Shown here in pieces: positions 12,284-52,575 of a stretch of DNA of 64,000 nucleotides (within the stretch, counting starts at the first letter, position 1; every line of letters starts with the position of its first letter). This DNA comes from Crassostrea angulata (taxonomy: Eukaryota), in contig NC_069116.1 in the NCBI RefSeq assembly GCF_025612915.1, forward strand, positions 24,707,051-24,771,050, given 5' to 3'. The position numbers were made by a program, and so were the translations under genes. The notes beneath the pieces are model-generated. The model ran no database searches, had not been told where the DNA came from, and was given only the letters and a program-made list of their open reading frames with translations.

Positions 12284-12415
12284 CGTATGCTTGGGGTGAC
12301 CGACAATGGCGGGAAACACGGCTCTTGGAGCATCGTCTCCGGCGAATCCAACCTTGCACGTTTCGGATCCACTGTCAATAACTAATGCAGCAACTTCGTC
12401 TTCGTCGTCGGCCAT
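12284..12415 (-). CDS. Divergent actin paralog 1, exon 1 ([44 protein letters not shown])
   Basis: ATG at 12415, donor ACG|GTAAGT at 12283, 44 codons in phase 0; joins exon 2 in frame. Note [10 protein letters not shown] versus canonical [10 protein letters not shown]. Confidence 0.75.
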
Positions 12416-12524
12416 TTTTAAAAACTTTGCCGAGGGTGGATTTTAAAATTCTTAATCTTGATTAGATTCCCTTTGTTGGGGGAAATGTTCAGCCATTTAA
12501 ACCTACACTAAATATTGCACAATT

Positions 12525-12532
12525 CTTTTATA
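12525..12532 (-). promoter_or_regulatory. TATA box (TATAAAAG) for actin paralog 1
   Basis: About 110 bp upstream of the ATG on the minus strand. Confidence 0.4.
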
Positions 12533-16155: not shown

Positions 16156-16217
16156 ATTTTACATCAGTGAATGTGATGCTATTAATGATATTATAATTGT
16201 AACTTGGCATAGCCTAC

Positions 16218-16346
16218 CGTGTGCTTGGGACGACCGACGATGGGTGGGAACACAGCCCTGGGGGCATCGTCACCGGCGAATCCAGCCTTACACATCCCGG
16301 ATCCATTGTCAATAACCAACGCTGTGACTTTGTCATTATCAGCCAT
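16218..16346 (-). CDS. Divergent actin paralog 2, exon 1 ([43 protein letters not shown])
   Basis: ATG at 16346, donor ACG|GTAGGC at 16217, 43 codons in phase 0. Confidence 0.75.
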
Positions 16347-16618
16347 TTTAACTTTGTTTTTTCTTGATCTCGTTTTCGATTTACACAATTCAACATTTCC
16401 AAGATTGGTTAAAGAGAGATGCCTAAAAGTAAAAACTTATTAGCATCCGTAGAGTAGGTGTAAGATTAACGAGAAGAATTAGAGTTGTTTTAACAAGAAT
16501 TTGGACATTTGGTATTAGTGTCATATGCTACTCATGGTTAACTATCAGTCATCGGCAAATACAATGTAGATATGAACATACACTGATTGCAGCAACACTT
16601 GTCTGACTTTATCAAGGG

Positions 16619-16626
16619 CTTTATAT
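16619..16626 (-). promoter_or_regulatory. Candidate TATA-like element (ATATAAAG) for actin paralog 2; implies a 5'UTR intron with an acceptor near 16423
   Basis: It sits about 275 bp upstream of the ATG. A tttttacttttag acceptor at 16422-16435 (minus strand) and a CCAAT motif lie between them. Speculative. Confidence 0.2.
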
Positions 16627-18434
16627 TTCATGATTAGTTGAAACCGCATTCATTTCAAAAAATAGACCAGAAAATTTTCAACATTCAATGAACATTGATG
16701 AATTTCTATAAACTTAAGCAAATCTGAAAGAAGGTTCATGTTCTTAATATTTGACTGTTGTTTTTGGTGAAAAAACTAGACATGTTCATCTGAAAGTACA
16801 ACCTCTTGGTAAAATGGCTCTACAAAGAATCATTTAATCCCCAATATTGTAAAATTTTATGTTGTCTTTTTTTAATCCACCATACAGTCTGATTAAAGTC
16901 GTTTAAACACACAGTATTGTGATAATCGTGAACAAATTGTCATGTTTTCACTCCGTACCTAATGTAATGTTTGAGAGTATTCAAGTTGAATTAACATATT
17001 GATCCATTTTAGAATGCTTTAATATTTACTTGAATAGTAAACACCTGTAAAAAAAAGATATAATAAGCTGCAAAACACGTATATAGTTATAATTTACAAG
17101 CAACATATGACGCGGAAAAGCGTTTATCGATTGGTTTATGGCACTTTAAAGATTCCATATAAACAAGCCTAGATCTAAGAGTATCTTAATCAATTAATCC
17201 TCGAACGGTTATAATATGATTTACATATTATATTTCAAATTTCAAAATTTAAATTCAAGTTAGAATAGCATTATTACAAAAGTTACATCTAACATATCAC
17301 AAATATTAAATAATATATTATACACACATTGAAATGTGTTCAATGGATCCCCCAGTAATTCGTTCGGACCTATCTTATTATCTCATGACAACAGGATGTG
17401 TTCATTGTATTGTAAATATATAAGTACACGTACTTACTATGTATCAGACGATTGTTTACAGAGATAGTCCGAGTCTACCGAGAAAAAGAAAACACTCAAA
17501 CAGGATGTTTCGGCCGCTACAGAAGCCGCTTTGTGCCAAATTAAAAGAAATATTTTATTCTGCGCCGCCAAAAAGGCGTTTATTAAACACTTGATATCGA
17601 GAACTTTTATATGGAGATATTCTTAATTGTTTCCGAAATTGATATCATTCGCTCCACCACTTCGATCGGAGGACTTGTTTTGTAAGAAACAATAGAAATT
17701 ATCTAAGTAGAAACATGCAACTTTGTAGGTTTACGTATGTAGTTATTTTCCAACGAGAATAAAAATTGTTTAAAAATGCATTGATGACGTATATATTTAT
17801 TTTGACGGCCGTCATATAAAATACTTTCTTTACTCGTCACCATTAGTCTTTTACAGTATAAAGAAACAAAAACAAAATACCCCTCCCCCCCAAAAATAAC
17901 GATACTCGTATCAAAGATAATTAAATAACGAAGACAAATTTTCTTTAACGCTCTATATATTGATCTAAGGGGGCTGGGTGGTCGACATCTGCCTCAATCT
18001 TTATCTTAAAAATTTTATTTATCCTTCAAACTTTATAAATGAAATAATATAAAAAGAAAAGTTTTTGATTGTATCCATGAATTTTACGAAGTTGTGGCAA
18101 TTTTGGCCACGATGCATATTATGGAATGAATATATACAACTTGAGATCAAATTAGGAAAAAACCCGGTTGTACCGGTACATCGGTGACTCCAACCCCTTT
18201 ACCTTTATGTTACACGAGGGGCCACTAAGCCAAGCAGTTTGCTGAACACCTGAGCGTAATATTAACACTACAAGACTTATTAGATTTGTCTACATAAAAG
18301 TCAGATTTATGGTACAAATAAAAAATTCCAGATAATTTAGAGTTATCGAACATTGCTGATAGTCTAGTCTCGGAGATCGTTATCATACTGACCGGGTTGG
18401 TTAGTTAACTACGAAAAGCGAATAGTGCCAAAAC

Positions 18435-18600
18435 AAAAATATTTTTATCTCGTAATTACGAGAAAAGATCTCGTTATTACGAGATAATTAACTTGTAATT
18501 ACGAAAAAAGATCTCGTAATAACGAGTTAATTATCTCGTAATTACGAAAAAAGATCTTATTATTACGAGTTGATATTCTCGTATTTACCAGAAAAGATCT
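18435..18600. repeat. Tandem repeat (about 45-bp unit, about 3.5 copies) built around the perfect 14-bp palindrome CTCGTAATTACGAG
   Basis: ctcgtaattacgag(a/aaa)agatctcgt(t/a)attacgag… repeated; about 240 bp downstream (3') of the actin paralog 3 stop codon. Confidence 0.7.
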
Positions 18601-18836
18601 CTACAGATATTCAGATATAAACAGGGATTTCATTATTTATTATACATGTTACAACATACATAATCATATTTTATATACTATCACTTGTAAGTTGCATACT
18701 AGTGTATTTGTATTATATTTGAATCAATCAATCAAGTTCATTTCATAATCATTCTGGATAAGCTAATTGTTATTTTAAATGATTTACAACAAACATCACA
18801 GATCGGTTCAAAGGTCAACTGGTTAAACAGTAAGTA

Positions 18837-19865
<1,029 letters not shown>

Positions 19866-20304
19866 TTATTTAATATAAACAATTTAGAATTTTTTTTCTT
19901 TTCCTTTATTTTTGATTAATGAACAAACCCTATCAGAGTAAAATGATTTAGATTTATAAATTCCGTCATAAAAATTCAGTTTTCTTACAGTCAACATTCA
20001 TTTGCGGTTTACCAGTATCAAATTACCATAAACTGAATCATTAACACTGTGTTATGTAATTAAATAGTTTATTTAATTGTTCAATCAGATTGCTTTATGA
20101 AACATGAGCTACTAGATGAAATGCCAATATTATTAACTTTTTTATTTTATTGTTTTCGGTAAATAATGAAATAGAATACGTGAAAAGTATGCTAAGCGGT
20201 TTCCGTTAACGCTGCATTACAAAAAACGATTTTATCCCTTTGGTTGTATGTTACCTATTATACGAACATAGGGATGACATGGTTTCAACTTACATCAGTT
20301 ATTA

Positions 20305-20481
<177 letters not shown>

Positions 20482-20526
20482 TTAAGTTCCAGTTTATTGT
20501 AATGCTTAACTTATGATGGCTGCTTG

Positions 20527-20534
20527 TATTTATA
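20527..20534 (-). promoter_or_regulatory. TATA box (TATAAATA) of actin paralog 3, in a conserved CTTGTATTTATATGCC context
   Basis: About 90 bp upstream of the ATG. The same 16-mer occurs upstream of paralog 4 at 24852-24867. Confidence 0.5.
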
Positions 20535-20808
20535 TGCCATAAGGCTTTTGATCACGTGCTTCTGTTTTCATGATCCAATACCATATTAAGACAACAGAAT
20601 GGAGCGCTGTTTGTGATTTTTACCTTTTTTGGAAGTTCAGTTTATAAGTCAACCAGGCTTTATCAGAATCATAATTAAAAATAAACCATAATGTATGAAG
20701 CATGAAACAACGCAAGATAAGATAATTTCATTTAAGCCTTTATCGACTCTTAACAATTTAATCACAAAACAGAACAAAACGATTGAATTTTTTTTTTTAT
20801 AAACCTTC

Positions 20809-20823
<15 letters not shown>

Positions 20824-20899
<76 letters not shown>
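20824..20899. repeat. (TA)n microsatellite, about 38 units
   Basis: Direct reading. Confidence 0.9.
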
Positions 20900-20902
<3 letters not shown>

Positions 20903-21317
20903 GAAAAAAATATGTCAATTTGAAAAGTTGAAAAGGTTTGTTGAATAATTCAGGATTGTTTCATTATTGAAATCTTCATTTAAAAAAATGAATTTAAAAA
21001 AATACAAAATAAAATTAGAGCAGAGCAAAGTATATCTAAATTCGTGTAGTAAAATCAATACATGTATGTATATACCACACTTTAATTGTTGATTCAGGTA
21101 CGTGTATTTTCTTACATATATTAGTAATGTTGAAATGTATAGAAATGACGACATTCTTCAAAACCAAATCCAAATAAGGTATCTACATTTATGAAGAGGT
21201 CTCCGTTCTAGACCGAACTATTTTTAGACTTGACACACTCGGGACAGGTATAGTACTAATCTCTCGACTGCTTGCGCAAGTCGTGTTTTAATAAACTTTT
21301 TTTTCAAACTGATAAGG

Positions 21318-21319
<2 letters not shown>

Positions 21320-21390
<71 letters not shown>
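21320..21390. repeat. (TA)n microsatellite, about 35 units
   Basis: Direct reading; a second TA array about 420 bp from the first. Confidence 0.9.
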
Positions 21391-21395
<5 letters not shown>

Positions 21396-23042
21396 GGAGA
21401 GGGTTTGTTTTGTTTTTTGATTTTGTTTTTTTCTGGGGTTTATTTTTTTTGGGGGGGGGGGTTTATTTATCCATTCATTTATGTATTTATTTGGTATTTC
21501 TTACTATTTTCGAACAAAGATTAATCAAGGTATCGTTATTTATTTTGTGTTTGCTACGCTACAGGCTGTTATCAGGGGAAAGGGTTTATATGCTATACTT
21601 ATTGATTTTTTATTTAACGATTTGTATACGACTATGTTAAAAAACAGTAACTTTGATTCAATTCGTTTCTCTGCTTTAAAATGTTTAAATGTCCGGTTGT
21701 AAATCTGTTTCAAGATCACAGTACAAAAGAATTATTTTTTATAATAATACTTATGATATTCAAAAGGCTATCCAGTATATATATATATCTGCATTTACAG
21801 CGTGTTCATGACCTCATACTGACCTGATTCTAATGTAAACATTGCTTATTGAACGCGGAATGTGTAAAGGTATATATCAATGTACTGGAAGAGGTATAGA
21901 AAAAACAACTAACGATGAACACGGGTACTCCGCAGCAGATTTAAGTAGATGAAAAAAGCTATCAAAACAACTTTCCTGCCAAAAAGAAACTTGGTTTATT
22001 AATTATATTATATAAATTTACAACAGATCCAATATTTTAGTCGGCGAATAAGGTTGAGAACCACGCCCCTTCTCTCTCAGGACAGCCAAATGAACAACAT
22101 TGAGAATAATAATGATGTTCCCCCTCATCAAAATATATGCATATATTTCTATAATCGAATAAGGGATATTCTCCTTCAAGTGTCAAAGATCAATAAGAAG
22201 TATATTCCCCCATCCCCTTTCCCAGCAAGGCTCATTCTAAAAAAAATGTTCTAAATCAAAATTATTTAAAATTTCAATAACCGTTGTGAAAACGAAGAGT
22301 AACAACGACAACAACATAAAACAAAAAAAGTTGTAAAACAAATTTCACGATCCTTGCTAGGGTTTATGGACGAACTTATGTATGTTTATTCGTTTATTAG
22401 AATCAATTTTGAGAAAAAAATGTATTTGAACCCTGACCAATTAAATCATAGGTTAAAATGCCCAATACTTCTCTGCTTTCTCTTGATTTATGTCGGCTGT
22501 CTGCAGAACCTTAGCAAGTCTAGACTAACAAACGTTATCACTTACATTCTTTTATTTTTGAAAAACGCGAAGATTAAAGTCTTGTCAGTTTCTATACAGC
22601 TGTGAATTACAATCAATTTCCATAAGAAATATAGTGAATTATACTTAGTAAATGTAAATATTGAGGGATAACTCTCAATGGAAATAGTTGATATTACATG
22701 TACATGCAATTTTACATTTAAAAAATATTCTTTTTAGATATTGACCCCCTACATATAATGAAATTGCTAACATTGTAAGTACAACTCAAAACAAAGGAAT
22801 GATGCATTTTAATTTATTAAGACAACAAGTTTATTTTAGGTGTTGTTTATTATCTGGACAGTTACCATTGTTAATTTTTATACATTGTATATTGCGTAAA
22901 TTTTTTGTCTAATTGATGAGGCAATATCTCTCAAATGTGTTTCAAACCATCTTGGTCAGTCTTATTGCTTATATATCCCAAATCCTACAAGTGTCAAAGA
23001 TCAATTAACACCACGACTGATCCTAAATGTTTTAAAAGAGTA

Positions 23043-24080
<1,038 letters not shown>

Positions 24081-27938: not shown

Positions 27939-29144
27939 TCATCTTCTCCATAAGACATCGTTTGGCCACGAGAGTCTCTGGTTCAGAGGTAATGGCTGCC
28001 GGGCTAGTACCGGTCGGGTCGGTGTGAATCCATGCCGACTTAAAAAATCAATGATTTCCTGGCCCGCCGGACCCGTTTTGAGCCACATCCATTCCATTAA
28101 CACAGCTCTAACGTCGACGTTTTTGAAGAACTTCTGTCCTCCTTTAAACACCCTGTTCTCATATCCTTCCACGTCCATTTTTATAATTACTTTTTTCAAA
28201 TCAAAACCCGGAAGTTCGAGGAGGTCGTCTAGAGTTGCAGTTTGAACATCGCCATAGCTACCGGAAACACGACTTCCTCTGACTTTGTTTGGGTTTTTGT
28301 CTTTTGCCACAAACGTCCCTCCAATATTGCCTTTATCTACGCCAAGGGACACAACCTCACGGACATCAGACAGAGCATTATATACTAACTGCACATTATC
28401 AAAACGATTTGTTTGTACTGTTGCACACATGCGCTGAATGTTTATAGATAAAGCATCAACTGATACGACTTTCCTGCCGAATTTAGCCACCGCCATTGAA
28501 TATACACCGAGATTGGCACCAAGATCTAAGAACTGCAAGTCTAGATCTTGTCTAAGAAAGGTTAGGACTAGTTCTATGTAACCCCCTTCCCAGGAACCAT
28601 GTTTGTGAATACTATTACTAACGTGAATGTCATTCTTTGGGTTATGAATGAAGATTGGGAGTGACCCAGCCGAAGTTCGAAGAACAGCCTGCATAAATTT
28701 AGGCAGAGCTTTACAAGTGTGATCGTCCCTGGTCCATTGCTGAGCGTTCCTTGCGTACAATCGAAGTATTTGTGGAGCTGGTGTTGTGATAGCCTTTGTT
28801 ATTAGAGAGTTTTGGGTAGAATTTCTAATCGCTGCTTTGATTTTCTGGGCGACAGGTTTTTCAGTTGAAAAACTCCCGTTTCGATTTCCTTTAAATGAAG
28901 TTCCAACACCTTTTTCAGTATTTGGGACACTGGTACTTAATCTTAATTTTGAAACGCTTGTATTTAAATTTTGCTTAGTTTCTTCAGATGTCCCTCCTTT
29001 GAATATTCGGATTCCAGCATTCAATATCGTCTGACCGTGGTGTAACACATTAATATTAGTCTCCTTTTCAATATTGCACAAAAACCATCCAAATGTAAAA
29101 GCACAAATCATCAAAAAGGCTTTCCAGAATTTATCCAATTCCAT
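27939..29144 (-). CDS. FkbM-family (Methyltransf_21) SAM-dependent methyltransferase-domain protein, METTL24-like, type II membrane topology (paralog A, 401 aa)
   Basis: Uninterrupted ORF with an ATG start. The N-terminal hydrophobic anchor is MELDKFWKAFLMICAFTFGWFLCNI. Glycine-rich SAM motif I is IDLGANLGVYSMAVA…VVSVD, and the FkbM signature is KMDVEGYENRVFKGG. It is paralogous to the ORFs at 35913 and 38378. Confidence 0.75.
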   Translation of the reverse strand: MELDKFWKAFLMICAFTFGWFLCNIEKETNINVLHHGQTILNAGIRIFKGGTSEETKQNLNTSVSKLRLSTSVPNTEKGVGTSFKGNRNGSFSTEKPVAQKIKAAIRNSTQNSLITKAITTPAPQILRLYARNAQQWTRDDHTCKALPKFMQAVLRTSAGSLPIFIHNPKNDIHVSNSIHKHGSWEGGYIELVLTFLRQDLDLQFLDLGANLGVYSMAVAKFGRKVVSVDALSINIQRMCATVQTNRFDNVQLVYNALSDVREVVSLGVDKGNIGGTFVAKDKNPNKVRGSRVSGSYGDVQTATLDDLLELPGFDLKKVIIKMDVEGYENRVFKGGQKFFKNVDVRAVLMEWMWLKTGPAGQEIIDFLSRHGFTPTRPVLARQPLPLNQRLSWPNDVLWRR

Positions 29145-30856: not shown

Positions 30857-30969
<113 letters not shown>

Positions 30970-32185: not shown

Positions 32186-33302
32186 AGCGCTCCTTTAATT
32201 ACAATACGCTTATAGCACTCCTTTACGATACACTTATAGCACTCCTTTACAATACACTTATAGCGCTCCTTTACGATTTGCTTTTAGCACTCCTTTACGA
32301 TACACTTGTAGCGCTCCTTTACGATACATTAATAGTGCATCTTTACGATACACTTATAGCGCTCCTTTACGATACACTTACAATGCTCCTTTACTATACG
32401 CTTATAGCGCTCCTTTACGATACACTTATAGTGCTCCTTTACGAAACGCTTATAGCACTCCTTTACGATACGCTTATAGAGCTCATTTACGATACATTTA
32501 TAGTGCTTCTTTACGATACACTTATAGCGCTCCTTTACGATACTCTTACAGCACTCCTTTACGATACGCTTATAGCACTCCTTTACGATATATTTATAGT
32601 GCTTATTTACGATACACTTATAGCAATCCTTTACGATACACTTATAGCACCTCTTTACCATACACTTATAGCACTCCTTTACGATACGCTTATAGCACAG
32701 CCACTCCTTTACGATACGCTCATAGCACTCCTTTACGATAGGCTTATAGCGCTCCTTTACGATACGCTTTTAGCTTTCCTTTACGATACCCTTATAGCAC
32801 TCCTTTACGATACTCTTATAGCACTCCTTTAAGATACGCTAATAGCGCTCCTTTACGATACGCTTATAGCACTCCTTCACGATACACTTATAGCGCTCCT
32901 TTATGATACACTAATAGTGCTTCTTTACGATACACTTATAGCGCTCCTTTACGATACACTTATAATGCTCCTTTACGATACGCTTACAGTGCTTCTTTAC
33001 GGTACGCTTATAACACTCCTTTACGGTACGTTTATAGCACTCCTTTACGATACACTTATAGCGCTCCTTTACGATACGCTTATAGCGCTCCTTTACGATA
33101 CATTTATAGTGCTCCTTTACGATACACTTATAGAGCTCCTTTTCGATACACTTATAGCGCTCCTTTACAATACTCTTATAGCGCTCCTTTACGATACACT
33201 TATAGCACTCCTTTACGATACACTTATAGAGCTCCTTTACGATACACTTATAGCGCTCCTTTACAATACTCTTATAGCGCTCCTTTACGATACGCTTATA
33301 GC
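32186..33302. repeat. 24-bp minisatellite, about 46 units over about 1.1 kb (consensus GCACTCCTTTACGATACACTTATA)
   Basis: Strict 24-bp periodicity with point variants. A unit length divisible by 3 with no stop codons creates artefactual ORFs on both strands (TLIALLYD…, CIVKERYK…). Confidence 0.9.
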
Positions 33303-35912: not shown

Positions 35913-36920
35913 TCAATTTTTTTTGCGCCATAATACATCATTTGGCCAAAATTCTCGCTGATTAATAGGCAAAACACGCCTATCCGTAGGAACAGTTGCT
36001 TCATAATTATGACGTTTAAAAAATTCTACGATTTCTTGACCTGCAGGGCCGGTTTTTAGCCACATCCACTCCATGAGCACCGCTGTCACATCGACACGTT
36101 CAAAGAATTTATTGCCACTCTTAAACACTCTATTCTCGTACCCTTCCACGTCTATTTTCATAACAGCTTTTTTCACCGAGAATCCCGGAAGTTCCAAGAT
36201 GTCGTCAAGCATCGCCGTCTGCACGGACCCGTAGCTGCCCCCGACGTCACTTCCTCTAACTTTATTCGGATTCTTGTCTTTGGCAACAAATGTTCCACCA
36301 ACGTTTCCTTTATCTTTACCAAGACTTACCACTTCTCGGACATCTGACAAAGCATTATGGACCAGTTTTATGTTCTTTGTAAAGTTTCCCGCATAGATGG
36401 AAGCACACAATCTCTCCACATTCATAGCTAAAGCGTCCACTGCTATGACTTGTCTATTCATCTTTGCTATGGATAAAGCAAAAACCCCTATATTGGTACC
36501 GAGATCTATGAAGTGGAGATCAGGATCTTCTTTAAGAAGGTTAGAAATAAGATCAACAAATTGAGGCTCCCATCTTCCATCTCGTATTAAACTTCCACTT
36601 ACATGTTTATCTTCAGTGGAAGAGTAAACGAAAATAGGCGTGTCTCCAGCACTTGTGTGTAAAGTTGTTTTCAAAAACTTTGATGTATCTTTGCATGTTA
36701 TATTGCATGGATTCCATTTAGTTTCATCTCTGTGATAAATAAAGTATTCCTGAGACACCGGTTTTTTCGTCGTTATCGGAGCCTCTGTGTTTTTAAATAC
36801 CGGATCAAACATCGGAAAGAGTCTCTGTGCGTGAGGACATTGCTGGATAGCGAGCATCCATCCCACGATGAAGCAACAGAACCCCAAGCAGCCGATTTTG
36901 ACGGCCAAGTTGAATTTCAT
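35913..36920 (-). CDS. FkbM-family (Methyltransf_21) methyltransferase-domain protein, type II membrane topology (paralog B, 335 aa from ATG 36920)
   Basis: The listed ORF starts at a TTG. The first ATG (36920) gives MKFNLAVKIGCLGFCCFIVGWMLAI (signal anchor). Motifs are IDLGTNIGVFALSIAK…VIAVD and KIDVEGYENRVFKSG. A tttacatttacag acceptor lies 12 nt upstream of the ATG, suggesting a 5'UTR intron. Confidence 0.7.
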   Translation of the reverse strand: MKFNLAVKIGCLGFCCFIVGWMLAIQQCPHAQRLFPMFDPVFKNTEAPITTKKPVSQEYFIYHRDETKWNPCNITCKDTSKFLKTTLHTSAGDTPIFVYSSTEDKHVSGSLIRDGRWEPQFVDLISNLLKEDPDLHFIDLGTNIGVFALSIAKMNRQVIAVDALAMNVERLCASIYAGNFTKNIKLVHNALSDVREVVSLGKDKGNVGGTFVAKDKNPNKVRGSDVGGSYGSVQTAMLDDILELPGFSVKKAVMKIDVEGYENRVFKSGNKFFERVDVTAVLMEWMWLKTGPAGQEIVEFFKRHNYEATVPTDRRVLPINQREFWPNDVLWRKKN

Positions 36921-38377
36921 CGTGGGTGCGTTCTGTAAATGTAAACAAAACGTATTCTGACAAATACACAGTACTGCAAGGAGTCTCACCTGCCCGACAA
37001 CATAGATATGCTCCACGTGTAACGAAGCCTTATCAACACCGTTCGACAATTCATCGACTGGCCATAAGAAACGATCATATATTTAATGCAATCACAATTA
37101 AAAGTCTTACAAAAAGATTTACAGAAAATTGGTGTTGTTTATGCACAGGGTTTTTCGGGGTAACCAGTGCATAGAAAATATGTAATCTTACCGAATATAG
37201 ACATGTGTGGCGCTCTTTGCTATGGAGGGTATACGTTATCTCTGCTGATAAAGAAAACCACGTGGTTTCCGGTTGTCTAGCTGAAATAACTTTAGCAAAT
37301 AATCGGAAGAACAAAGGTATTTCCTTGATCCTGATTTTGATTGGTATCGTCTCTAATCGTACCAAATGTACACAGTAAAATCGTGTTTTTTTAGTGTCCG
37401 ATATCTTATGTGTAATCAAATAAGAGGAGGAAAGAGGCACTACTGCACGCCTTCAATATGTAGCGCTTTTGCAAACATCAGGCATTTTGAATATGATGTA
37501 CAACATTTAGTTAAAGTATATTTTTTTCAAAAAGGAAAATTTCACATTTACCATTTGAAAGGAGCCCTTGTATTGTATACGACATCATTAGAATAATCAG
37601 GTATTGTTAATGATATATAGGAAAATAGTTTACAGGTATGCAATAAAAAGTGGATTTTTGACTATTTGAACCAAAGAAATCCAACTAAAATTTTGCTCTA
37701 CAGGTTTAGTAGTACACTTTTACATTGAATTTATTGTTGGTTCAACTTGGTCTTTGTACTGAAAACTACGCATATTTTTCAATTAGTAGCTTTTCCAATA
37801 CAATCATGTATATACGCACAAATATCAAAAAGGCATTCTTTAGTGTTTTATCAGTGGCCAAGTGGTAATGCCTAGGTATTTTATTTTGCGGTCGCTTGAT
37901 CGATTAATATTTTTTTTCTTTTCACTTAAAGCATAATAAGAATAGAGTGATTAAATCTGCTGGATTTTTTCTTCAAATTTTCTTGTTTAATTCTTAGTAT
38001 ACGCATATCCAATATAAATAGATCTCTTCACTGACACCATAAATACACTAATAGTATTTACACTAATACATTCACTGCATAATGCCGGAAGTTATCACGG
38101 TTCAGATATCAAATGACTTTATTTCTCGATGAAGGTTTCCTGAATTTATAACAAAGCAATGATTACATACACCATTATAAAATAAATACCTATGTTTCGA
38201 AAATCATATTGCGACAGCTGTATTTATTTAAAGTAACAGTTACTTTCCGTTCAAACACGAGTGTAGGCGAAATAATGGGAAAATGTGCTTAACCTCTTAT
38301 TTTCTAACTATTTTAAAACTATTTTCTCTGATTATAATCCAAAATCAAAATCCTATCAAAAAGAACAATAAAATGGA

Positions 38378-39496
38378 TCATCTCGTTTTTATTAAAGGTT
38401 TTTTCCTCCATAAAATATCATTGGGCCAATTGCCACGGTCCTGAATTTTTAATGGCCGAGGGTTTTGTTCGGGAACATGCGGTTCCATATTTTTAAGTAA
38501 CATGAAATTGATAATTTCTTGCCCAGCGTTTCCGGTTTTAAGCCACTGCCACTCCATAAGAACTGCCCGTACATCGACTTTATCGAAAAATGTTTCGCCG
38601 CCTTTGAAAACTTTGTTTTCATAGCCTTCAACATCAATCTTCATTATCACTTTTCTAAAGTTAAATCTAGGTAATGATAAAACATCGTTTAATCGTATTG
38701 TTTGAACGGTTCCATAATTCCCAACGACCCTACTTCCGATCACTTTGTTGGTATTTTTATCCTTAGCCACAAACGTGCCTCCAACGTTATTTTCATCCAT
38801 TCCGAGTGATACTGTTTCATAGACATCAGAAAATGCATTGTACACAATTTGAACACTATCGGTAAAGTTACCTTCAATCACAGAGGAGCACAATCGCATG
38901 ATGTTCATCGCGAGGGCGTCTACCGCTAGCACTCGTCGCCCAAGCAGGGCGACCGCTAAAGTAAACACACCCACGTTGGAACCAATGTCTACAAAGTGTA
39001 GATCTGGATCCTGCTGTAGTAAGGACAGTATAAGGTTTATATGTTTTCCCTCCCAACTCCCATATCTGATGATTTCCCTGCTAACCCATATATCCTTCCT
39101 CGGGTCATATATATAAATGGTCGTCGAGCCAACATTTGTTCTGAGTTTGGAGCGATAGAATCCAGTGGTATTTCTGCTGCACATACTAGGCTGGACCTTC
39201 CATATCGTCCGATTCCTGCTAAACACTAAATTCCACCCATCGCTGCCTTGTGCTCTGTGCGATAGCTGACTTAAAGTGAAGTGGTTATTTTTTTTATTTG
39301 ATATCATGGTGCGATAGGGCGATGAATTGTTGTGGTAAGCGGTTACATTGCTGAAAACGGCCTCTGTTCGCCGCAGATATAACGCTACAGTTTGTTTCAG
39401 TCTATCCACCGTGTCTTCATAAGTCATAGATGTGAACATGTAGCCAAGACAAAAACCTACAACTAACAGGATGCAAGTTTTCTTTAATCTTGACAT
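38378..39496 (-). CDS. FkbM-family (Methyltransf_21) methyltransferase-domain protein, type II membrane topology (paralog C, about 372 aa from ATG 39496)
   Basis: Signal anchor MSRLKKTCILLVVGFCLGYMF. Motifs are VDIGSNVGVFTLAVALLGRRVLAVD and KIDVEGYENKVFKGG. A tttttttttctttcag acceptor lies immediately upstream of the ATG (the MFFFSFRI of the listed ORF is probably intron/UTR). Confidence 0.7.
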   Translation of the reverse strand: MSRLKKTCILLVVGFCLGYMFTSMTYEDTVDRLKQTVALYLRRTEAVFSNVTAYHNNSSPYRTMISNKKNNHFTLSQLSHRAQGSDGWNLVFSRNRTIWKVQPSMCSRNTTGFYRSKLRTNVGSTTIYIYDPRKDIWVSREIIRYGSWEGKHINLILSLLQQDPDLHFVDIGSNVGVFTLAVALLGRRVLAVDALAMNIMRLCSSVIEGNFTDSVQIVYNAFSDVYETVSLGMDENNVGGTFVAKDKNTNKVIGSRVVGNYGTVQTIRLNDVLSLPRFNFRKVIMKIDVEGYENKVFKGGETFFDKVDVRAVLMEWQWLKTGNAGQEIINFMLLKNMEPHVPEQNPRPLKIQDRGNWPNDILWRKKPLIKTR

Positions 39497-39830
39497 GATC
39501 CTGAAAGAAAAAAAAAACATGTAACAGATGTAAATGTAAATTTCTTTCGAAAGAAAAATTTATAGCAAATTTACAAATCCCCCCCCCCCCCCCCAATTTT
39601 AAATAAAAGGGGCATAACTCCCATATAAAGTCCCAATATGTACAGTAATTTTATATTATATGTCCTTAATAACTTCAAATTTTATAAATCCTGATGAGGG
39701 GATAAGTTGAGTTAGTTGCGCTGACAAGAATAAGACTGAAAATTGTTGCATGGTATTTTTCATTCTTTTCCAATCTTTGTTTCATTAAAGGAAGAAATTG
39801 ATTTTTTTTAAACTCAGTACAGTACACCTG

Positions 39831-39833: not shown

Positions 39834-39886
<53 letters not shown>
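39834..39886. repeat. (GA)n microsatellite
   Basis: Direct reading. Confidence 0.9.
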
Positions 39887-44052: not shown

Positions 44053-45671
44053 ACAACATGACACTAGTACATGACATCGCCGCTTCAGGAATTTATATCT
44101 TTTTTAAGATTCGTATTTTTCAATAAATTTCAAGCTTCAAAAGTTGAAAAAGCCCCCCAAAACAAAATGTTTTGAAACAGATATAACAAACTTTACCTGA
44201 CTGTTTAAAAAAATTAGGGAACCCTACCATGCATTTAAGGAAGGAGTCTTTTTATTATCAAACATACTTCTTATAAGAAATGCATGAAATTTTGACACAG
44301 TCAAACGGATCATATTACTTAATGATTCTATCAGTTTAATTAAACTTGACCTTTATGTTTTCGGATAAAGGTCAGGTCAAGGTCACTACCTTTTTCCTCA
44401 ACGTAAAGAGTGATAAAAATAAGTGTAGCTCTTTATAGTTCTGTAGACATTTGTTTAAGATTTGAAGATTCAAATCTTCAATGAAATCATAGACCATGAG
44501 AGTGTCTATCAGCTTATACTACTAAATTGGAATAAATATTTATACTAAAATTTATATTGCTTAGCCCGCATTTCCTCTAATTTTCTTAAATTTTGAAGAA
44601 ATTTTGATTATTTTTTAATGCTTCCGATAATAAAATATTTCTAATTTTTATGTATTCTGAAGACTTTATATAAAGATATAAATTGACAGAAAAGCTAATA
44701 TATTGACCGTTTCATAAGAGAGAAAAACTGATTTTAGTGATTTTTTCACAAAAATCAATGTATAGAATGGGCGCTTTAAAAAGCTTATAAAAATGTTATT
44801 TGATAAGCAAATCATATTTTAAAAACATATTCTGAAACCCAAGTATATTATTATTTCACATTAGTAAAAAAAAATCCAACATTATTGTTATTGTTTTTAA
44901 AATGCGAAAACAGACTCATTATATATATATAATCTGCAGCAATTCTGAATTGCGCAACATGTGATATTTTCCTACGCCAATATTACGCCAAAAATATAGT
45001 CCTTGTTCCATTCTAAACATTGATTACATTTTTCTATTCCAAGTTGTATGATAGTAAAAAAGAAAGAAAAATTTACTATTTTAATTTCCTTTCATCTTGA
45101 TTTAATGAACAATTAATCAAATTTACGTTTGACAAGTCGAAACCCAGAAAAGACTCCTTCCTTAAGATGTCTTCGCAATGCCTTTTGTCTCCAGATCAAT
45201 GAATAGAAAGACTGGAATTGTGAATAGTGATACGATGCATTTTTTGCTTCGATTGATAGAAATCACAAAAAAATGTATTTGAATTGTTATATACATGTCT
45301 TAATCTTTCAGCAGACGTCAATTTTTACCAATTGAGGCTTAGAATGAAAATACATTCCTTTGATACCTTTCCTAATCGGATTGTGAATTGAAGAATTTAT
45401 GTGAAAATAAATTCATTCAAACTTTTATGTTAAATGGTAGTGAAAACAATTATAACTGTAAAGAAATTCGTTATAAAAGTGTTAATTTCGTTATTATTCA
45501 CCTCTACGGAACTCAGAATCAGTTCGCTATATCCGAAAATTCGATACATCCGAATTCGTTTTAATAGTAAAATTTTGCAAAGATTTGTTAAGAGTTTTAT
45601 AGGGGACTCAAAAAAACTTCGCCATATCCGAGATTCGCTATATCCGTGTTTTACTGTAGTTATATATCACT

Positions 45672-45928
45672 ACTGTAATGAAAAAACCCTGAGACTATCA
45701 AAAAACCCTGAGGAAACCCTGAGTGGCACTGAGAAAACCCTGAGAGAACCTGAGGTCGGCACTGAGAATATACTGAGGAAACCCCGAGGGACCCTGAGGT
45801 TTGCACTGAGGGTACTGAGGAAACCCTGAGGGACCCTGAGGTTTGCACTGAGGGTACTGAGGAAGCCCTGAGAGACCCTGAGGTCGGCACTGAGGGTACT
45901 GAGGACACCCTGAGAGACCCTGAGGTCA
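45672..45928 (+). repeat. Array of a 42-bp minisatellite (CACTGAGGGTACTGAGGAAACCCTGAGGGACCCTGAGGTTTG, about 6 units); left arm of a large inverted repeat
   Basis: The reverse-complement array at 49370-49666 includes the same unique 50-bp lead-in (ctgtaatgaaaaaaccctgagactatcaaaaaaccctgagg). Confidence 0.85.
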
Positions 45929-47818
45929 CTTTTATTAGAAAAACGATCCAAATTATTCGATTAAATAAAGTTATAAAAGCTAATATAATTATTTTTTATA
46001 ATGATTATTTATATTTCTATTTTGTCGAAATTTCTTTTTAGTGACTCTGAGATTAAGTAAGAAAAAGAAATAATGAGCCATGTTATATTGTCTTATTATA
46101 TCAAGGCTTATTTTTTTGTTCAAACTACAACAAAGTTTTTTTGTTATTTTACAATAAGCATGCATAAAAAATAATATCTAATTTAAATAATGTTATTTAT
46201 TTCAATTTGACATCTGATTAAAATAGAACTTCTACTGTACTCTTTTTTCTGTAACACTGCATATTACCTTCTACTAAAACTTCCGTTGTGTATATCAATT
46301 GTCAATTCTATTGTTTGCCCATGATCAGAAAAACACTGGAACTAACACAGAATATACAAGATATACACACGCCAGTTTGCTGCATGTAAAGAACAGGTGC
46401 CCGAGGCAATATTGGAAATATATTACAGCTGTGAAATTGTCGCGAATTGATTCAACTGAAAAGTCAGCTGTGTATATTATCATTGTTAGTAAAAGAAAAA
46501 CTATAAAGTAGCAAACAATGTCAAAGTTTTAACACAACAGATTGTTTCATGTAATGCATGTAACAGGTGCCCGAGACAATGTTTGAAATATATCACAATT
46601 TTAAAATAAGATGTAGTTAATTTCATTTATATGCATTTAATAATATCTATAAAGATACATGCACACATAAAATGAAGTTTATTGCTAAAATGTGTTTGAT
46701 AACTTAGGAATATCTAGCTAAGCGATAGTGTTACTTAATATTGTATAGTTTACGTGTAAATTAGTATCTCTATTTAGAAAATTGAAATTTGATATCAGTT
46801 TGGGAGTTCTTTTTATTAACAAAGTTAAACCAACTTTTAAATAAAAAAAAACTACACTTGTACCCGTGACCGGTATTTCGATGTCTGTAAAGATAACCGT
46901 TCGTTGGTTTGACACGTAGGCAAAGTCAAGAGCTGTCTGCCTCGTCTATATCACAGCACAGAAAACAAAACTGAATGTTATAGATGATCTGAACTACCTA
47001 CTGCAGAATTGTACATGTGTCAATTTCAGTCTAAGAAAGATGTTTGTGAAGTGTAATGTCAAAGAAAATCTCTATTGTAGTAAGTTCTAAACACTGTTCG
47101 TTCTACCCACTAAGTTTTCAAATTTGAGCATAATTTTTTTTATATCATACATATACAGGCTTACACACGTACATCCCAGGCACGTAGCATCGATTTTTCT
47201 CTCAACAAATTAAACATTTAACTTGGATTACATATGAATCAACATGCATATGGAGTCCCCTCCTCTTTTTGGGAGCACGTAAGAAATTAAAGTAAAATGA
47301 AAGAAATTAACAATGAAAATGTGCTACAAATTGATAAACAGACCCAATACGCCCCCTCCCATATATAGCAATAGATATAATTTTCACGATTTTGAAAAGT
47401 GACATTCTTCTCCGTATTGTCAAGATTTTTTGATAAGGTTGCTCCCCCCCCCCCTTTTCAAAAAACGATGCAAGTAGAAATTCAATTTCAAAATGTTGAA
47501 CGTTCCGAATTTAGAAATATTTTCCACCCGATTGAATTTTGATATTTCTTGTTACCGGAAATGCCAAGACAGGGGAAGGGAAATTCCGAGGTCAGTCTGT
47601 CTTGTATTAATAATTTTAAATAAAGGACCTGTCGAGGAATTCAATTTTAACATAGCACGGAAATTTTGAATGTTTACGATGCACAACAGAGACTGATAAG
47701 TTGAATCAAAATGTATGTCTATACATGAAAAAAAAAACCTCCTCTAATGAAATGTGTGTGTCATTAAAACAAACCTGAAGTGAAATGATTTTGCTTTTTT
47801 TCCTTATAGTACCATAAT

Positions 47819-47936
47819 TTTTTTCTTAAGTTAATGTTACATTGTACTACTGACGCTTATTTGTATTGATGGTACTACCATCAATACAAATAAGCGTCAG
47901 TAGTACAATGTAACATTAACTTAAGAAAAAAATTAG
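47819..47936. repeat. Perfect 118-bp palindrome (59-bp arms, no spacer)
   Basis: ttttttcttaagttaatgttacattgtactactgacgcttatttgtattgatggta|ctaccatcaatacaaataagcgtcagtagtacaatgtaacattaacttaagaaaaaaa. Confidence 0.85.
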
Positions 47937-48045
47937 ACACATCGTAAAAAAATCTTCATTTCAAGTCAAATTCGGTTCACAACAATCCCCCCCCCCTTCC
48001 CCGTCTTCGACCAAATAATTCGCCGCCCCAATATGAAGTACTTTC

Positions 48046-48048
<3 letters not shown>

Positions 48049-48122
<74 letters not shown>
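48049..48122. repeat. (CT)n microsatellite, about 37 units
   Basis: Direct reading. Confidence 0.9.
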
Positions 48123-48127
<5 letters not shown>

Positions 48128-48688
48128 ACTTTATATATGTTTAGTACTACTAAATGTAGCCTGCGGTAATATTGCCAGTGTTTAAAATCGTGTATTTCAA
48201 TTTTTATTGATCATTGATTGTCTTGTTCTGATTCGAAGTCCATGATAAAAAAAAAGTACTGTGTACGATAGACGATGTACTGTCTCCTTTGTGTATAAGT
48301 ACGAAACACATTCTTTTATTTGTCTGGGATCAAGAAAAACCTCGGAAATAACAGACAAGGCTCAGACTATACACGAGACAGTGACCGCGGCGAGGTGTGA
48401 ATATTGGCCACCTGTGTATATATCTTGTAGTATCAAAATAAACAGCTCCAAACGGCGGGGAATTACGGTTCACCGGATTTTTATGTAAATATAAAAGTGA
48501 TTTCGCCCGGGTCTACATGGAAATCAAATCATAGTAAAGGAAATTAATTTTGAATAGGACTATATTTATAAAGTGATCGCTAAAAATCGGGATATAAGAA
48601 ATATGTATTATAATTATAGCGATCAAAATCAGTTTATTCCATATTTTATTCGGGTTTGTAAATGAAGTTTTATTTTGTTTTCCTTACC

Positions 48689-48691
<3 letters not shown>

Positions 48692-48752
<61 letters not shown>
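48692..48752. repeat. (GA)n microsatellite, about 30 units
   Basis: Direct reading. Confidence 0.9.
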
Positions 48753-48756
<4 letters not shown>

Positions 48757-49369
48757 TGGATTTTTTTAACCTCACACCATTTTACTGTCTAAGCATTAGA
48801 ATAGTTTACCGATCTATGTTTTTTTCATACTGTACAAGAATATGCGATATGATATATCAAAATACATCTACACTGTCTTGTTTCAAATTAGAAATACCGG
48901 TAATTGAATCTATGAATGCTCATAAGTCAACTATGTTCTGTTAGGGCGACTAAAATGATTAATTAAATGAATAAAAATGAACATGATTATTTATTTTAAA
49001 AACATTACATTTTACGGCCGACTACTATATTTCATTTCTGAAGAATACTTTATATGTAAAAGGTTTGTTTTTAATTTTCAAATAACAAATTAATTAAAAC
49101 ATTGGGTTCCTCGCTTTTCGCATGTTAAACCAGTATACAATGTACATTCAATAAGTACAGAATACATACTCATCCTTTCTGTTTATGTATTTTCCCTTAC
49201 AATTAATTAAAGATGCTGTTTAAATAAGAAAGTCTGATCATTTGCAATTGCATCAGTAAAATAAATTTATACCAAATTAATGCAATGTTACTCATGTTTA
49301 TATTTATTTTTAAATATGATTACGCCAATTGTTGGATAATGAAGGATTTTTTAAATTTACGTATTATGT

Positions 49370-49666
49370 GCCGACCTCAGGGTCTCTCAGGGTTTTATCA
49401 GTACCCTCAGTGCCGACCTCAGGGTCTCTCAGGGCTTCCTCAGTACCCTCAGTGCCGACCTCAGGGTCTCTCAGGGTTTCCTCAGTACCCTCAGTGCAAA
49501 CCTCAGGGTCCCTCAGGGTTTCCTCAGTACCCTCAGTGCAAACCTCAGGGTCTCTCAGGGTTTCCTCAGTATTCTCAGTGCCGACCTCAGGTTCTCTCAG
49601 GGTTTTCTCAGTGCCACTCAGGGTTTCCTCAGGGTTTTTTGATAGTCTCAGGGTTTTTTCATTACA
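49370..49666 (-). repeat. 42-bp minisatellite array, right (inverted) arm
   Basis: Reverse complement of 45672-45928 including the unique lead-in. Confidence 0.85.
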
Positions 49667-49914
49667 GTATACCATAAAACGGGAAATATACTTTCTATGA
49701 AATGACGGAATGCATGCTTTACATTCAAATATTTACATTTTTCAGTGCCTTTGCTTGTAATAACTCTACCTATCGATTCCGTACAATATAGTCCAATAAA
49801 TTCAAATGACGTTTATTGGGGCGCAAACGGGGTTTGCTTAATTACATTCAATCATTTAATCGTACAATTGCTGATAATAATATAACTATAAGTAATAAGG
49901 AATCATGCTTTAAA

Positions 49915-50030
49915 ATTATGAGAAGATAATTTTGGTCGGGGCCGTGATCAAATCTATCATAAAGCCCTTCGGGTTGTATTGGATTTGATCACGCCCGGAC
50001 CAAAATTATTACCTCATAATACTCAAAGAA
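49915..50030. mobile_element. MITE-like element (family A, copy 2)
   Basis: TIRs ttatgagaagataattttggtcgggg / ccggaccaaaattattacctcataa. The core 'tcaaatc.a.aaagccc..ggg' is shared with 7563-7680. Confidence 0.5.
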
Positions 50031-52575
50031 TGCTTCCTTATTCCTTAAATCTTGTTTATGTTTTTAAAAAAATGGAGTCAACGAAAGGTTAGATGGGGTT
50101 TTGTAGCCAAGAGAAAGAACAACACACACAAAAAATATCTTTATATTTCCTTTTTCAGAATGAATCAATGAATACGTTTGTATGCGCGACCTTAAATCGA
50201 TCCCTTGTCGTCAAAGTGTGCAATGGTGATATTCTGTCTCCATATCAATGAGGAGAGAGAAAAAGCAGATTATCCACGCGGTTTGAATACGAACTTTTTA
50301 TAAGGAAATATACGCCGAAAATTACAGAAAAGTGCGAACCCGTGGAATGAAATGGCCATTATTTCTAGTTCAGTAGGCGTGGCGGCGATTCCAAGTATTC
50401 TAAAATATATTATATTGTTTCTGGGGATTATTGTAATGGGCCATTGTGGGATGACGGGTGCACTGGATTGGCACAATATGCACATTATCATCATTGTTCA
50501 CAACAATTTTATTACCGGGGATTAATGGGAAAACAAAATAACGCTTTCGTCTAGGATCAAGTCGCATCCATCAGAGAGGCGCAAACAAAAAAGAGTTAAT
50601 TTGCGATCTATAACGCTTAGTTCGAGTAACAGTAGTACTACGTACGGCCGCTCCCTGGCTGAACTGTACGTTTAACCATAACTCAAACAGCTCCAAAATT
50701 ATCGCAGTCCATCTAGGGAAATCAAATAACCACGCTCAGATGGGAATAAAATATCAGTTTATTCATTCATTATCTATTCACCATCTAATTCATACAATAG
50801 CAAATGAACGACAAGTTTCATATTCTCGCCCGACATTGTGATTCATTGTAGTGCGACTTCTAAATTGGCTGAAAAAGTATATAAAAGCTAGTAGCGTTCT
50901 TGACCAAGGTCACGTGACACGTCATCTTCATCTAAAGAGTGACTAAAGCTTAATTCTACATCGACCTTAGTACCCCTGCGAATGTTATTGTCATTTAAAT
51001 TTAGACCACGTGGTTTTATTTGACCCTTTTAGTTTCGCAGTAAAAATTGTGCCTCATGATGATAGTCTATTTCTTAGAATTTATAGGTACTTGTAGTCAA
51101 ATGTAAAATCTAGGCATTTATTGATTTTAAACTTTATCTTCATTAATTAGAGGATAAAACGAGTTCTAGAAATAAATATGTAAATATAAATTATAATTTT
51201 TTTCTGCTATTGCAACAATTAACTTGCTTAGTAACGGTTCCCCTTTTAGGATTAATGTTTGATCCGCGCCTGACCTAGTAATAGCATCAATTGTAAAACA
51301 GACTATAATATTTTATGCAGAATATTCCTTGAACATAGCTCGATATACTAAGTTTTTATGCAAACCAAACACCCATTCTTTTTTTAAAAAGCATGGTATT
51401 GCACGCCAAAAGCATCAAACATGGCTATGATTTTATTAGGCAACCAATGTTTATACTTTCAACCACGTGTAGAGTGGTTGAACACGAACGATAACTCTGT
51501 TCTAAATATTATCGTTTAGTTTAAATAACCTCTAGAGGATGAAATAAAACATATATCTTAACAGATTTTCATGTTTTAACATAAATCAAAGTAGGATATG
51601 ATATGAACAATGACCAGAACTTACGTATTTTGAGAATATTATCCGAACACTTACACTTCCGCTCAAAATTTCACAGGAACTGAACAAATCTCGGTGAAGT
51701 CTCGTGAACTTTCATTCGAGCATCTCTGGATTTATTACATACTTAGCTACGATAAAGGAAACATTCCGGACACATTCGCAGGGGTGCTTAGGGTATTGAT
51801 GTTATTTAGAGTGTAAACTCAAGAAGCTACGATGGTCTAAGTATTTAAATCAGGCTCGTAGCTGAGTCAAAGTATACAACCTGGCCATTTTGAAAAATTT
51901 AATATGGAAAACTGAATCACGTCAAATGTATGCTAAATAATTTTAATATAAAGCAGATTGAAAGCTTTCAAAAATTAGCCATGTAAAGTATGGCAGGATA
52001 AAGACAAGAACAAATCTGGTATTTACAGGACTTGTACAGACGTCTCTGGTTTACAGGAAGAACTTGTAAACATAAATCACGTGACTTATCGTAGGTTTGC
52101 CCAAACTATGAATCAAATAATCTGTCTCAGGTTTATAAAGCCTAAGGTATAACTTGTGTTTAGTTTACGGAAATCACGAACATGTAACTTCTCTCAGTTT
52201 GAATGATAAAAACTACAAAGGTTTAAAGGGATTAAATTTTGCATTGGGTTTACAGGAATATGACTGCTGTATGGTTTAATTAAAGGAATCAAATACCTTA
52301 GCCATGTTTTACACGAATTACATGACTGACTTTTCTATGGTTTACAGGAATCACATGACTTGTCTGGGGAATATAGGAACTGCATGACCGGTCTTATGTT
52401 TACACCATACACAAGATATTTCTCCAGTTTAAATTACATCATCTGTTTTTAGCCAAACAAATCTGAACATGAAGTTACATCCAAGGTTGTTGCATCTAAA
52501 ATAATCAGACTGAAAAAAAGGTATTATTTTATTGATTAAATTGAGTGAGAGTACAATCAAATGATCTTTATCCTG

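Follow-up and report, generated by a model that had tools for sequence, protein, structure and literature searches.

A probable non-autonomous DNA transposon family with foldback-like arms of tandem repeats in oysters

In oyster genomes DNA transposons predominate, and the majority of the tandem repeats have been attributed to Helentrons; to our knowledge, no foldback family has been characterised in molluscs. Galileo, a foldback-like element of the P superfamily in Drosophila buzzatii, has terminal inverted repeats (TIRs) of up to kilobase length and target-site duplications (TSDs) of 7-8 bp, and is also known from autonomous copies that encode a P-type transposase. Elements of the CACTA/En-Spm (CMC) superfamily have 5'-CAC(TA) termini, TSDs of 2-4 bp (typically 3 bp) and subterminal repeat arrays that bind the transposase, the motifs of which are usually scattered and present in both orientations. 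The foldback (FB) elements and Tetris of Drosophila virilis consist of three parts, a terminal domain followed by a domain of tandem repeats and then a middle that is non-coding and variable, and occur in rearranged or shortened forms (PMC4079207). Tandem repeats in TIRs have been proposed to act as secondary transposase-binding sites (PMC4079207, citing Marzo et al. 2013).

Here we describe an element found in a 64-kb stretch of DNA from an oyster of the family Ostreidae (the window). Positions 45668-49669 very probably represent one copy of a non-autonomous, cut-and-paste family of oyster DNA transposons with foldback-like arms (Table 1). The element is a genuine but fairly ordinary mobile element; the family leaves known transposon biology unchanged, while giving oyster genomes, besides Helentrons, another means of dispersing short tandem arrays, one that is based on TIRs.

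Table 1. Features of the element, in window coordinates.
Feature	Position	Strand	Details
Left arm	45668..45927	+	terminal CAC, terminus TACTGTAATG, lead-in of ~100 nt made up of degenerate CTGAG subrepeats, ~4-5 42-bp units
Terminal CAC of left arm	45668-45670		outside the perfect inverted repeat; YAY conserved in other copies
Left interior, family sequence	45928..47106	+	collinear with the diverged copy L059
Recurring ~100-150 bp module	46282..46437	+	direct-orientation repeats at 46494-46607 and 48285-48382
Imperfect 211-bp hairpin	47767..47977	.	core is a perfect 121-nt palindrome, 47815-47935
(CT)37.5 microsatellite	48049..48123	+	TRF
(GA)31 microsatellite	48692..48753	+	same position in copy L001
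Right interior, family sequence	48754..49367	-	L001 alignment
Right arm	49368..49669	-	inverted copy of left arm, ~6 units of 42 bp

The inverted match between the arms extends over 45671-45927 (257 nt) and 49368-49669 (302 nt), with a gap of 3,440 nt between them. Within the 64-kb window the 42-bp unit and the 29-nt terminus are confined to the element, and shuffled sequences gave an expectation of 0 for both. The initial annotation had described opposite-facing arrays of a 42-bp unit about 3.4 kb apart, and this arrangement is borne out, with 5 and 6 copies enclosing 3.44 kb; TRF assigns a period of 42 and 4.9 copies to the left array and 6.0 to the right. Complementarity between the arms is 100% in the outer 100 nt and 96-97% in the array parts; in a global alignment the arms are set apart by one complete 42-bp unit, an indel of 2 bp and a small number of substitutions. 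A common, unique lead-in of about 50 bp had also been proposed; the identity of the outer 100 nt upholds its presence in both arms, but degenerate CTGAG subrepeats make up this sequence as well. The 42-bp unit divides into four subunits of ~10.5 bp, each with CTGAG at its centre and all of one orientation, and the pentamer occurs 21 times in the left arm and 25 times in the right (0.26 expected), in a single orientation within each arm and at a spacing of 9-12 nt (~10.5 bp). We infer that these pentamers are putative transposase-binding sites.

Comparison with other copies gives the family terminus as 5'-YAY-TACTGTAATG…GTG-3'. Of 20 ends sampled, about 15 have YAY (CAC, CAT or TAC) in front of TACTG, and approximately one third of ends have TAC. 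The left end of the window copy reads CACTACTG, and the same comparison places its terminus at the CAC, 3 nt beyond the perfect repeat, so that of the earlier bounds of 45672-49666 the inverted arms stand and the left limit is moved outwards. At the right end the outermost 3 nt (canonical GTG) are absent and the junction reads …CATTACAGTA followed by TACCAT. The canonical right end, …CAGTAGTG, is found in L060, L058 and P0177-P0179, and outward-reading ORFs terminate in CATTACAGTAGTN. Having lost this GTG at its right end, the window copy may no longer be mobilisable.

A TSD sought immediately outside 45672 and 49666 does not flank the element, the right terminus of which is incomplete. The flanks read ATATATCAC and TACCATAAA; they share no direct repeat of 8-10 bp, and none surrounds the complete relatives L058 and L060. 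Inspection of the window junctions by eye revealed no clean TSD of 2, 3, 5, 8 or 9 bp. The adjoining 3 bp are TAT on the left and TAC on the right, the latter lying beyond the end that is missing 3 nt; those of L058 are CAA and CAA, and those of L060 TAT and AAA. As a matter of speculation, the right junction could be squared with a TAT duplication by assuming a 5-bp microdeletion (CAGTA[GTGTA]TACC). The sequence TATAT just outside YAY is common to several close copies, and could be a target preference or an unrecognised terminal sequence. A repeat in the right flank of the window copy starts 54 nt past the junction.

The dinucleotide TA lies directly outside CTGTAATG at both window ends, and the perfect inverted repeat therefore reaches 45671 and 49669. 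These ends might be read as TIRs of the Tc1/mariner or Stowaway type that begin CTGTAATG and are flanked by a TA TSD, in which case the inserted segment would be CTGTAATG…CATTACAG with TA as the target. However, the YAY beyond the TA is conserved in the ~15 of 20 ends noted above despite their otherwise unrelated flanks, and the TA is thus internal to the element; L058 and L060 have no TA just outside their YAY…GTG ends. With no TA duplication directly outside the TIR, an assignment to this group is very unlikely.

The layout of the element bears a close likeness to the FB scheme. Long TIRs of tandem subrepeats lie behind a unique terminal domain and enclose a variable non-coding middle, which differs by indels from that of L059, and this modular arrangement matches that of Tetris (PMC4079207). 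As with Tetris and FB, the oyster element is non-autonomous and has shortened forms, among them hairpin-like miniature derivatives. Membership of the classical foldback lineage (FB/Tetris, Mutator-related) would entail an FB/MULE-type transposase and TSDs of 8-10 bp, and since no such TSD was seen it is unsupported. Repeats of 220 bp in Tetris (10-31 bp in FB) and TIRs that dominate the element differ from the 42-bp unit (4 x 10.5) of the oyster element, its CAC…GTG ends, and its arms, which sum to 559 of 4,002 bp (~14%) in the window copy; TIRs form most of the element only in the ~207-bp relatives L058 and L060. Moreover, foldback architecture arises independently in several superfamilies (PMC4079207). 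We regard descent from the FB lineage as improbable, and the foldback label that the locus first received is apt for its arms, arrays and middle but probably not for its ancestry. Galileo, which shows foldback architecture evolving inside ordinary TIR superfamilies, shares with the oyster element its long TIRs and internal tandem repeats; in Galileo these repeats carry extra transposase-binding sites (PMC4079207).

As to the superfamily, the CAC…GTG ends, the subterminal arrays and the single 3-bp duplication lead us to lean towards CACTA/CMC. Dense subterminal arrays of a short motif (21 + 25 CTGAG at ~10.5-bp spacing) are a likeness to CACTA. The consensus end CAC-TACTG… would also suit that group, but about a third of ends have TAC and the window copy lacks the right GTG; likewise the CAA/CAA duplication of L058 may be a 3-bp TSD of the CACTA kind, but the other complete relative, L060, has none. 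In contrast to CACTA motifs, those of the oyster arm all face one way, in a regular tandem array with a higher-order unit of 42 bp, and no CMC transposase was linked to the family. The kilobase TIRs, 7-8 bp TSDs and P-type autonomous copies of Galileo were not seen in the oyster element. We tentatively entertain the idea of a new bivalve-specific TIR lineage, in which arms of the foldback type would have arisen inside a group that is CACTA/CMC-like or still unclassified; here the whole arm would be a one-orientation array of CTGAG, phased at 10.5 bp and comprising putative transposase sites, with the 42-bp unit as a higher-order repeat.

In order to find further copies, the translated arm was used as a protein query against public oyster read assemblies (Logan/ENA). 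A first search returned 37 ORFs; among 128 representative matches, about 60 that are short and of high identity, from related ORF clusters, are true copies. In the DNA of L001, L008, L009 and L059 the family terminus and array stand beside unrelated flanks, such that copies with one junction in common are dispersed, and the number of 42-bp units per end varies from ~3 to 7 across copies. L001 has the interior of the window copy next to its right arm, and L059 next to its left arm. Miniature relatives of ~207 bp, L058 (421-627) and L060 (87-294), retain both termini. A second full-length copy was not seen, the other copies being known from short contigs only. Outside the oyster assemblies, the lead-in pattern had 0 matches in JGI metagenomes, and the 48 matches of the unit pattern there were all isolated, at most 22 nt long and due to chance, none forming an array; scans of bacterial and archaeal genomes gave 0 matches, and a scan of viral contigs gave one, L061, which was judged to be chance. 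The 42-bp unit is absent from the C. gigas satellitome supplements. Taken together, the common terminus and array beside unrelated flanks, the common interiors and the miniatures argue for a dispersed, non-autonomous TIR family, and the transposon interpretation of the initial annotation gains from the presence of terminus and array at many unrelated oyster loci with family-specific interior on both sides. As no transposase is fused or adjacent to the arm in any match, and no autonomous partner was found, both the mobility of the family and its superfamily are deduced solely from its structure and from how its copies are distributed.

These copies also bear on whether the locus is one mobile unit at all. 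The lack of a clean TSD and the incomplete right terminus of the window copy would suit a rearrangement scar (a hairpin-capped break or inverted duplication), and the existence of miniature family elements makes it conceivable that two small, opposed elements inserted separately around host DNA. Yet the sequence inside each arm is family sequence that lies beside the same type of arm elsewhere (L001 on the right; L059 and P0002 on the left), neither arm has a second terminus at its inner end, and the interior has no other match in the window. We consider such a composite origin very improbable; the hairpin-capped scar, which had been put forward as an alternative, is rejected on account of the family interior that recurs beside the arms at other loci.

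The interior of the transposon copy is, as had been claimed, AT-rich and non-coding, with a GC content of 31% (54% in the arms), no ORF above 93 aa and, in frame +1, 76 stops in 1,146 codons. A six-frame Pfam scan of the interior gave nothing above threshold, the best scores being noise (RNA_pol_Rpb1_4, 17 bits; DUF7921, 17 bits), and no tRNA or coding remnant was found in the element. The left interior aligns with L059 in three collinear blocks (46286-46530, 46579-46702 and 46962-47106), the window having extra segments at 45985-46285 and 46703-46961, and is translated by the C-terminal half of protein P0002. On the right, L001, from a different locus and dataset, has 88% identity to the window over 824 nt from the right arm through to the microsatellite, with ~615 bp of right interior in common; the (GA)31 array, found at the same position in both, is thus part of the family element. 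Two microsatellites reported earlier as (CT)37 and (GA)30 proved to have 37.5 and 31 copies, and the palindrome given as 118 bp is perfect but measures 121 nt, with arms of 60+1+60. The surrounding hairpin folds as DNA with -68.3 kcal/mol (z = -21). The perfect palindrome alone gave Rfam matches, to microRNA-precursor models; both strands score equally, and these were taken as a generic hairpin effect.

The combination of microsatellite, tandem-repeat array and palindrome is also known from oyster HINEs (PMC7492417), and the microsatellites and hairpin of the present element could accordingly suggest a derivative of Helentron/HINE, by which tandem repeats and microsatellites are usually carried in Crassostrea genomes. 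Cg_HINE of Crassostrea gigas belongs to the same host group and has similar short arrays, but it differs in its rolling-circle mechanism, its subterminal inverted repeats of 11-12 bp and its conserved boxes; the microsatellites of HINEs are mostly of 4-nt motifs (PMC7492417), whereas those of the oyster TIR element are dinucleotide and its TIRs span 257-302 bp. Helentrons and Cg_HINE are marked by conserved boxes at their termini, by subterminal inverted repeats of this short length and by a 3' palindrome; none of the five conserved Helitron boxes (1-5) was matched in 45668-49669, while Box 3 was readily found in the flank of L008. A Helentron origin is extremely unlikely.

For the TIR family we propose a mechanism in which cleavage would take place at the terminal ~13 nt, and a transposase provided in trans would bind along each arm at its 21-25 CTGAG motifs, which are in helical phase; the array is read in this way because the tandem repeats of Galileo TIRs and the subterminal repeats of CACTA elements have this role. 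Intrastrand pairing of the inverted arms may lead to internal deletion, which would explain ~207-bp miniatures that keep both termini. Inverted arms can cause local instability, as at the one site where the miniature L060 and the longer copy L008 both occur. Several reading frames of the arms are open, so that gene callers translate the arms and may join them to host genes, with consequences for annotation: in the nSTAND3-ankyrin model P0076 a family copy lies inside the host gene, at …SPLYI|NHCDEK….

The element at 45668-49669 is a real, well-delimited non-autonomous DNA transposon with terminal inverted repeats (TIRs) and foldback-like arms, belonging to a dispersed oyster family. The initial annotation had described its ends as true inverted copies of a 42-bp array, and this was confirmed. 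In a repeat search the outer 100 nt (45671-45770 and 49570-49669) are inverted and 100% complementary, and the array parts inward of these, reaching 45927 and 49368, are 96–97% complementary. TRF assigned 4.9 copies of the 42-bp period to the left arm and 6.0 to the right; when the left arm is aligned globally to the reverse-complemented right arm, the two differ by a single complete unit, an indel of 2 bp and a small number of substitutions. Neither the 42-bp unit nor the 29-nt terminus recurs anywhere else in the window (expected number in shuffles, zero). The left arm contains 21 CTGAG motifs and the right arm 25 (0.26 expected from shuffles), in a single orientation and at spacings of 9–12 nt, with a mean of 10.5 nt; the 42-bp unit is therefore a higher-order repeat of four subunits, each of about one helical turn. 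The lead-in reported as unique, present in both arms, is the degenerate outer portion of the same CTGAG array. This very regular, helically phased, single-orientation array is a mildly unusual trait of the element.

Because 42 bp corresponds to 14 codons, the arms lack stops in several reading frames, and other copies would therefore have been translated by ORF callers. Relatives were sought as such ORFs with the translated right arm (103 aa) as query, which identified 37 ORFs in Logan/ENA assemblies; an exhaustive search of representatives gave 128 matches, approximately 60 of them short, high-identity true copies. The 42-bp arrays recur at other loci in other oyster datasets, with the same terminus beside unrelated flanks. 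Contig L001, whose flank differs from that of the window, carries this terminus and 4–5 units, and is 88% identical to the window over 824 nt, in an alignment that starts in the right arm and crosses ~615 bp of interior as far as the dinucleotide microsatellite. Contigs L008 and L009 hold additional copies in unrelated flanks, and an older copy (L059, ~78% identical, 6–7 units) has an interior collinear with 46286-47106 of the window save for two window-specific segments. L058 is a complete 207-bp relative, in which the terminus, lead-in and three units are followed directly by the other terminus. L060, whose flank is identical to that of L008 and marks the same insertion site, is a 208-bp hairpin-like derivative with both termini. 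The shared terminus and arrays in unrelated flanks, with interior shared on both sides, show that the element belongs to a dispersed family whose end is defined and whose interior is family-specific on either side. This excludes a local rearrangement scar as the origin of the inverted arrays, as well as a pair of small elements that inserted separately on either side of host DNA. The 42-bp unit is absent from the C. gigas satellitome sequences in the supplements of the satellitome paper.

A further copy interrupts the last ankyrin repeat of an 887-aa nSTAND3-ankyrin protein (P0076) at …SPLYI/NHCDEKTLRLS…; the final 100 residues of this gene model are translated from an arm, an example of how such stop-free arrays can contaminate or truncate the gene models of the host.

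Tandem repeats in oysters are usually carried by Helentrons and their non-autonomous Crassostrea relatives (HINEs) (PMC7492417, PMC8268682). Both were excluded here, as the element has no match to any of the five conserved boxes. The copy found in L008 and L060 is itself inserted within a Helentron/Cg_HINE-type tandem repeat (L008 641-734, L060 1-86), to which Box 3 of PMC8268682 aligns with 91% identity over 46 nt; the ready detection of Box 3 in the L008 flank shows that the box test had power. The site carries the long form in one dataset and the 208-bp hairpin form in another.

The ends were compared by alignment of copies and back-reading of ORF flanks. Homology between copies runs past the inverted-repeat boundary of the window, with three extra conserved bases, YAY (CAC, CAT or TAC), at ~15 of 20 ends and unrelated flanks beyond. 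ORFs reading outward end in …ITVV/…HYSS, corresponding to CATTACAGTAGTN, and L058 and L060 terminate on the right in …GTG. The conserved YAY and these right ends point to a family terminus of 5'-YAY-TACTGTAATG … CATTACAGTA-RTR-3', canonically CAC…GTG. The left end in the window has the canonical CAC (45668-45670); on the right the sequence runs …CATTACAGTA/TACCAT, without the canonical terminal trinucleotide, and since its outermost 3 nt are missing this copy may be immobile. The TA adjoining the perfect inverted repeat at both ends of the window copy is internal to the element, because YAY is conserved outside it in other copies; a Tc1/mariner-type reading, with this TA as the target-site duplication, was removed.

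The picture for target-site duplications is mixed. With boundaries set by the family consensus terminus, the flanks are CAA/CAA in L058, TAT/AAA in L060, and TAT on the left versus TAC beyond the truncated right end in the window, where no clean duplication lies directly outside the element. No 8–10 bp duplication was found in the window copy, L058 or L060, and no empty site was reconstructable from sequence within the window. TATAT or some other AT-rich sequence adjoins many of the ends, and the TATAT in P0076 consists of host codons; this pattern suggests an AT-rich target preference. Several dinucleotide microsatellites that are both long and perfect lie outside the element (see table), and the (TA)n tracts may have a bearing on the apparent preference for TATAT-like insertion sites.

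The interior (3,440 nt) has a GC content of 31%, compared with 34% in the window as a whole and 54% in the arms, and contains no ORF longer than 93 aa; of the 1,146 codons in frame +1, 76 are stops, and stop-masked Pfam scans of all six frames gave nothing beyond two noise matches below threshold. Its description as AT-rich and non-coding therefore holds, and since it shows no coding capacity the element is non-autonomous. A tRNA search of the element found none, and the interior has no match in the rest of the window. The microsatellites and perfect palindrome reported there are present, the palindrome being 121 nt long and not 118. Rfam matches are confined to the palindrome, where microRNA-precursor models give each strand the same score: mir-130 reaches 43.6 bits on either strand of 47818-47932 (gathering score 40.6), and several unrelated miRNA models match the same segment. 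These matches are most likely a generic perfect-hairpin artefact, though a hairpin-derived small RNA from this segment is conceivable.

Coordinates of features within the element and in neighbouring sequence
Feature	Positions	Strand	Location or basis
(CT)37.5	48049-48123		interior; TRF
(GA)31	48692-48753		interior; TRF
Perfect palindrome, 60+1+60 = 121 nt	47815-47935		interior; repeat search
Imperfect hairpin, 211 bp, perfect palindrome as core	47767-47977		DNA fold -68 kcal/mol, z = -21
Actin long exons	10667-11662, 13954-14973, 18837-19862, 23043-24056	minus	
Three tandem single-exon FkbM-type methyltransferase-like genes (PF05050)	27939-29144, 35913-37049, 38378-39520	minus	
(AT)38	20824-20899		
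(TA)36	21319-21390		
(GA)53	30861-30967		
(GA)26	39834-39885		
24-bp minisatellite	32199-33302		
Putative Tc1-like end	45523-45659		directly left of element
~380-bp repeat	7550-7931, 49727-50039		

The element has the same three-part layout as the Tetris/FB foldback scheme of terminal domain, tandem-repeat domain and variable non-coding middle (PMC4079207). Foldback architecture has independent origins in different superfamilies, for which the length of the target-site duplication is the main clue (PMC4079207). FB/Tetris duplications are 8–10 bp, a length seen at none of the three copies compared here, and the arms make up only ~14% of the element. Of the original proposal of a foldback transposon, the transposon reading and foldback-like layout are thus retained, while membership of the FB lineage is unsupported. 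The CAC…GTG ends, subterminal repeat arrays and one 3-bp duplication (L058) lean slightly toward CACTA/CMC elements; no transposase is linked to the family in any related copy found.

Subterminal repeats of CACTA elements are known transposase-binding sites, and work cited in PMC4079207 is described there as having shown the same for the tandem repeats of Galileo TIRs. The CTGAG array may likewise offer phased sites to which a transposase provided in trans would bind. The terminal ~13 nt would be the cleavage site, and the inverted arms could give rise to internally deleted miniature forms, as well as to the long L008 and short L060 forms at one site.

Elsewhere in the window, four tandem actin paralogues occupy 10667-24056 on the minus strand, the two distal copies being more diverged (e.g. 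TVTNTV and ECSS in place of conserved motifs). The FkbM-type genes have N-terminal hydrophobic segments and homologues across bivalves (Saccostrea, Ostrea, Mytilus, Pecten); a 401-aa FkbM-like ORF is 99% identical to a 253-member Logan cluster and 69–70% to named Saccostrea and Ostrea proteins. The window is eukaryotic, and these identities point to an oyster source, most likely of the genus Crassostrea/Magallana. The 24-bp minisatellite (TTACGATACACTTATAGCGCTCCT; ~46 copies, 84% match) is open in several frames, yielding spurious ORFs of 110–220 aa. Beside the element are four occurrences of TTCGCTATATCCGA, arranged in two pairs separated by ~95 nt, with …GTTTTACTG/TA after them. The arrangement resembles a Tc1-like transposon end of the IR/DR type, 8–11 nt from the insertion; its partner was not found in the window. 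The ~380-bp repeat has as its core (~49918-50017) a MITE-like inverted repeat, ATAATTTTGGTCGGGGCCGTGATCAAATC…GATTTGATCACGCCCGGACCAAAATTAT.
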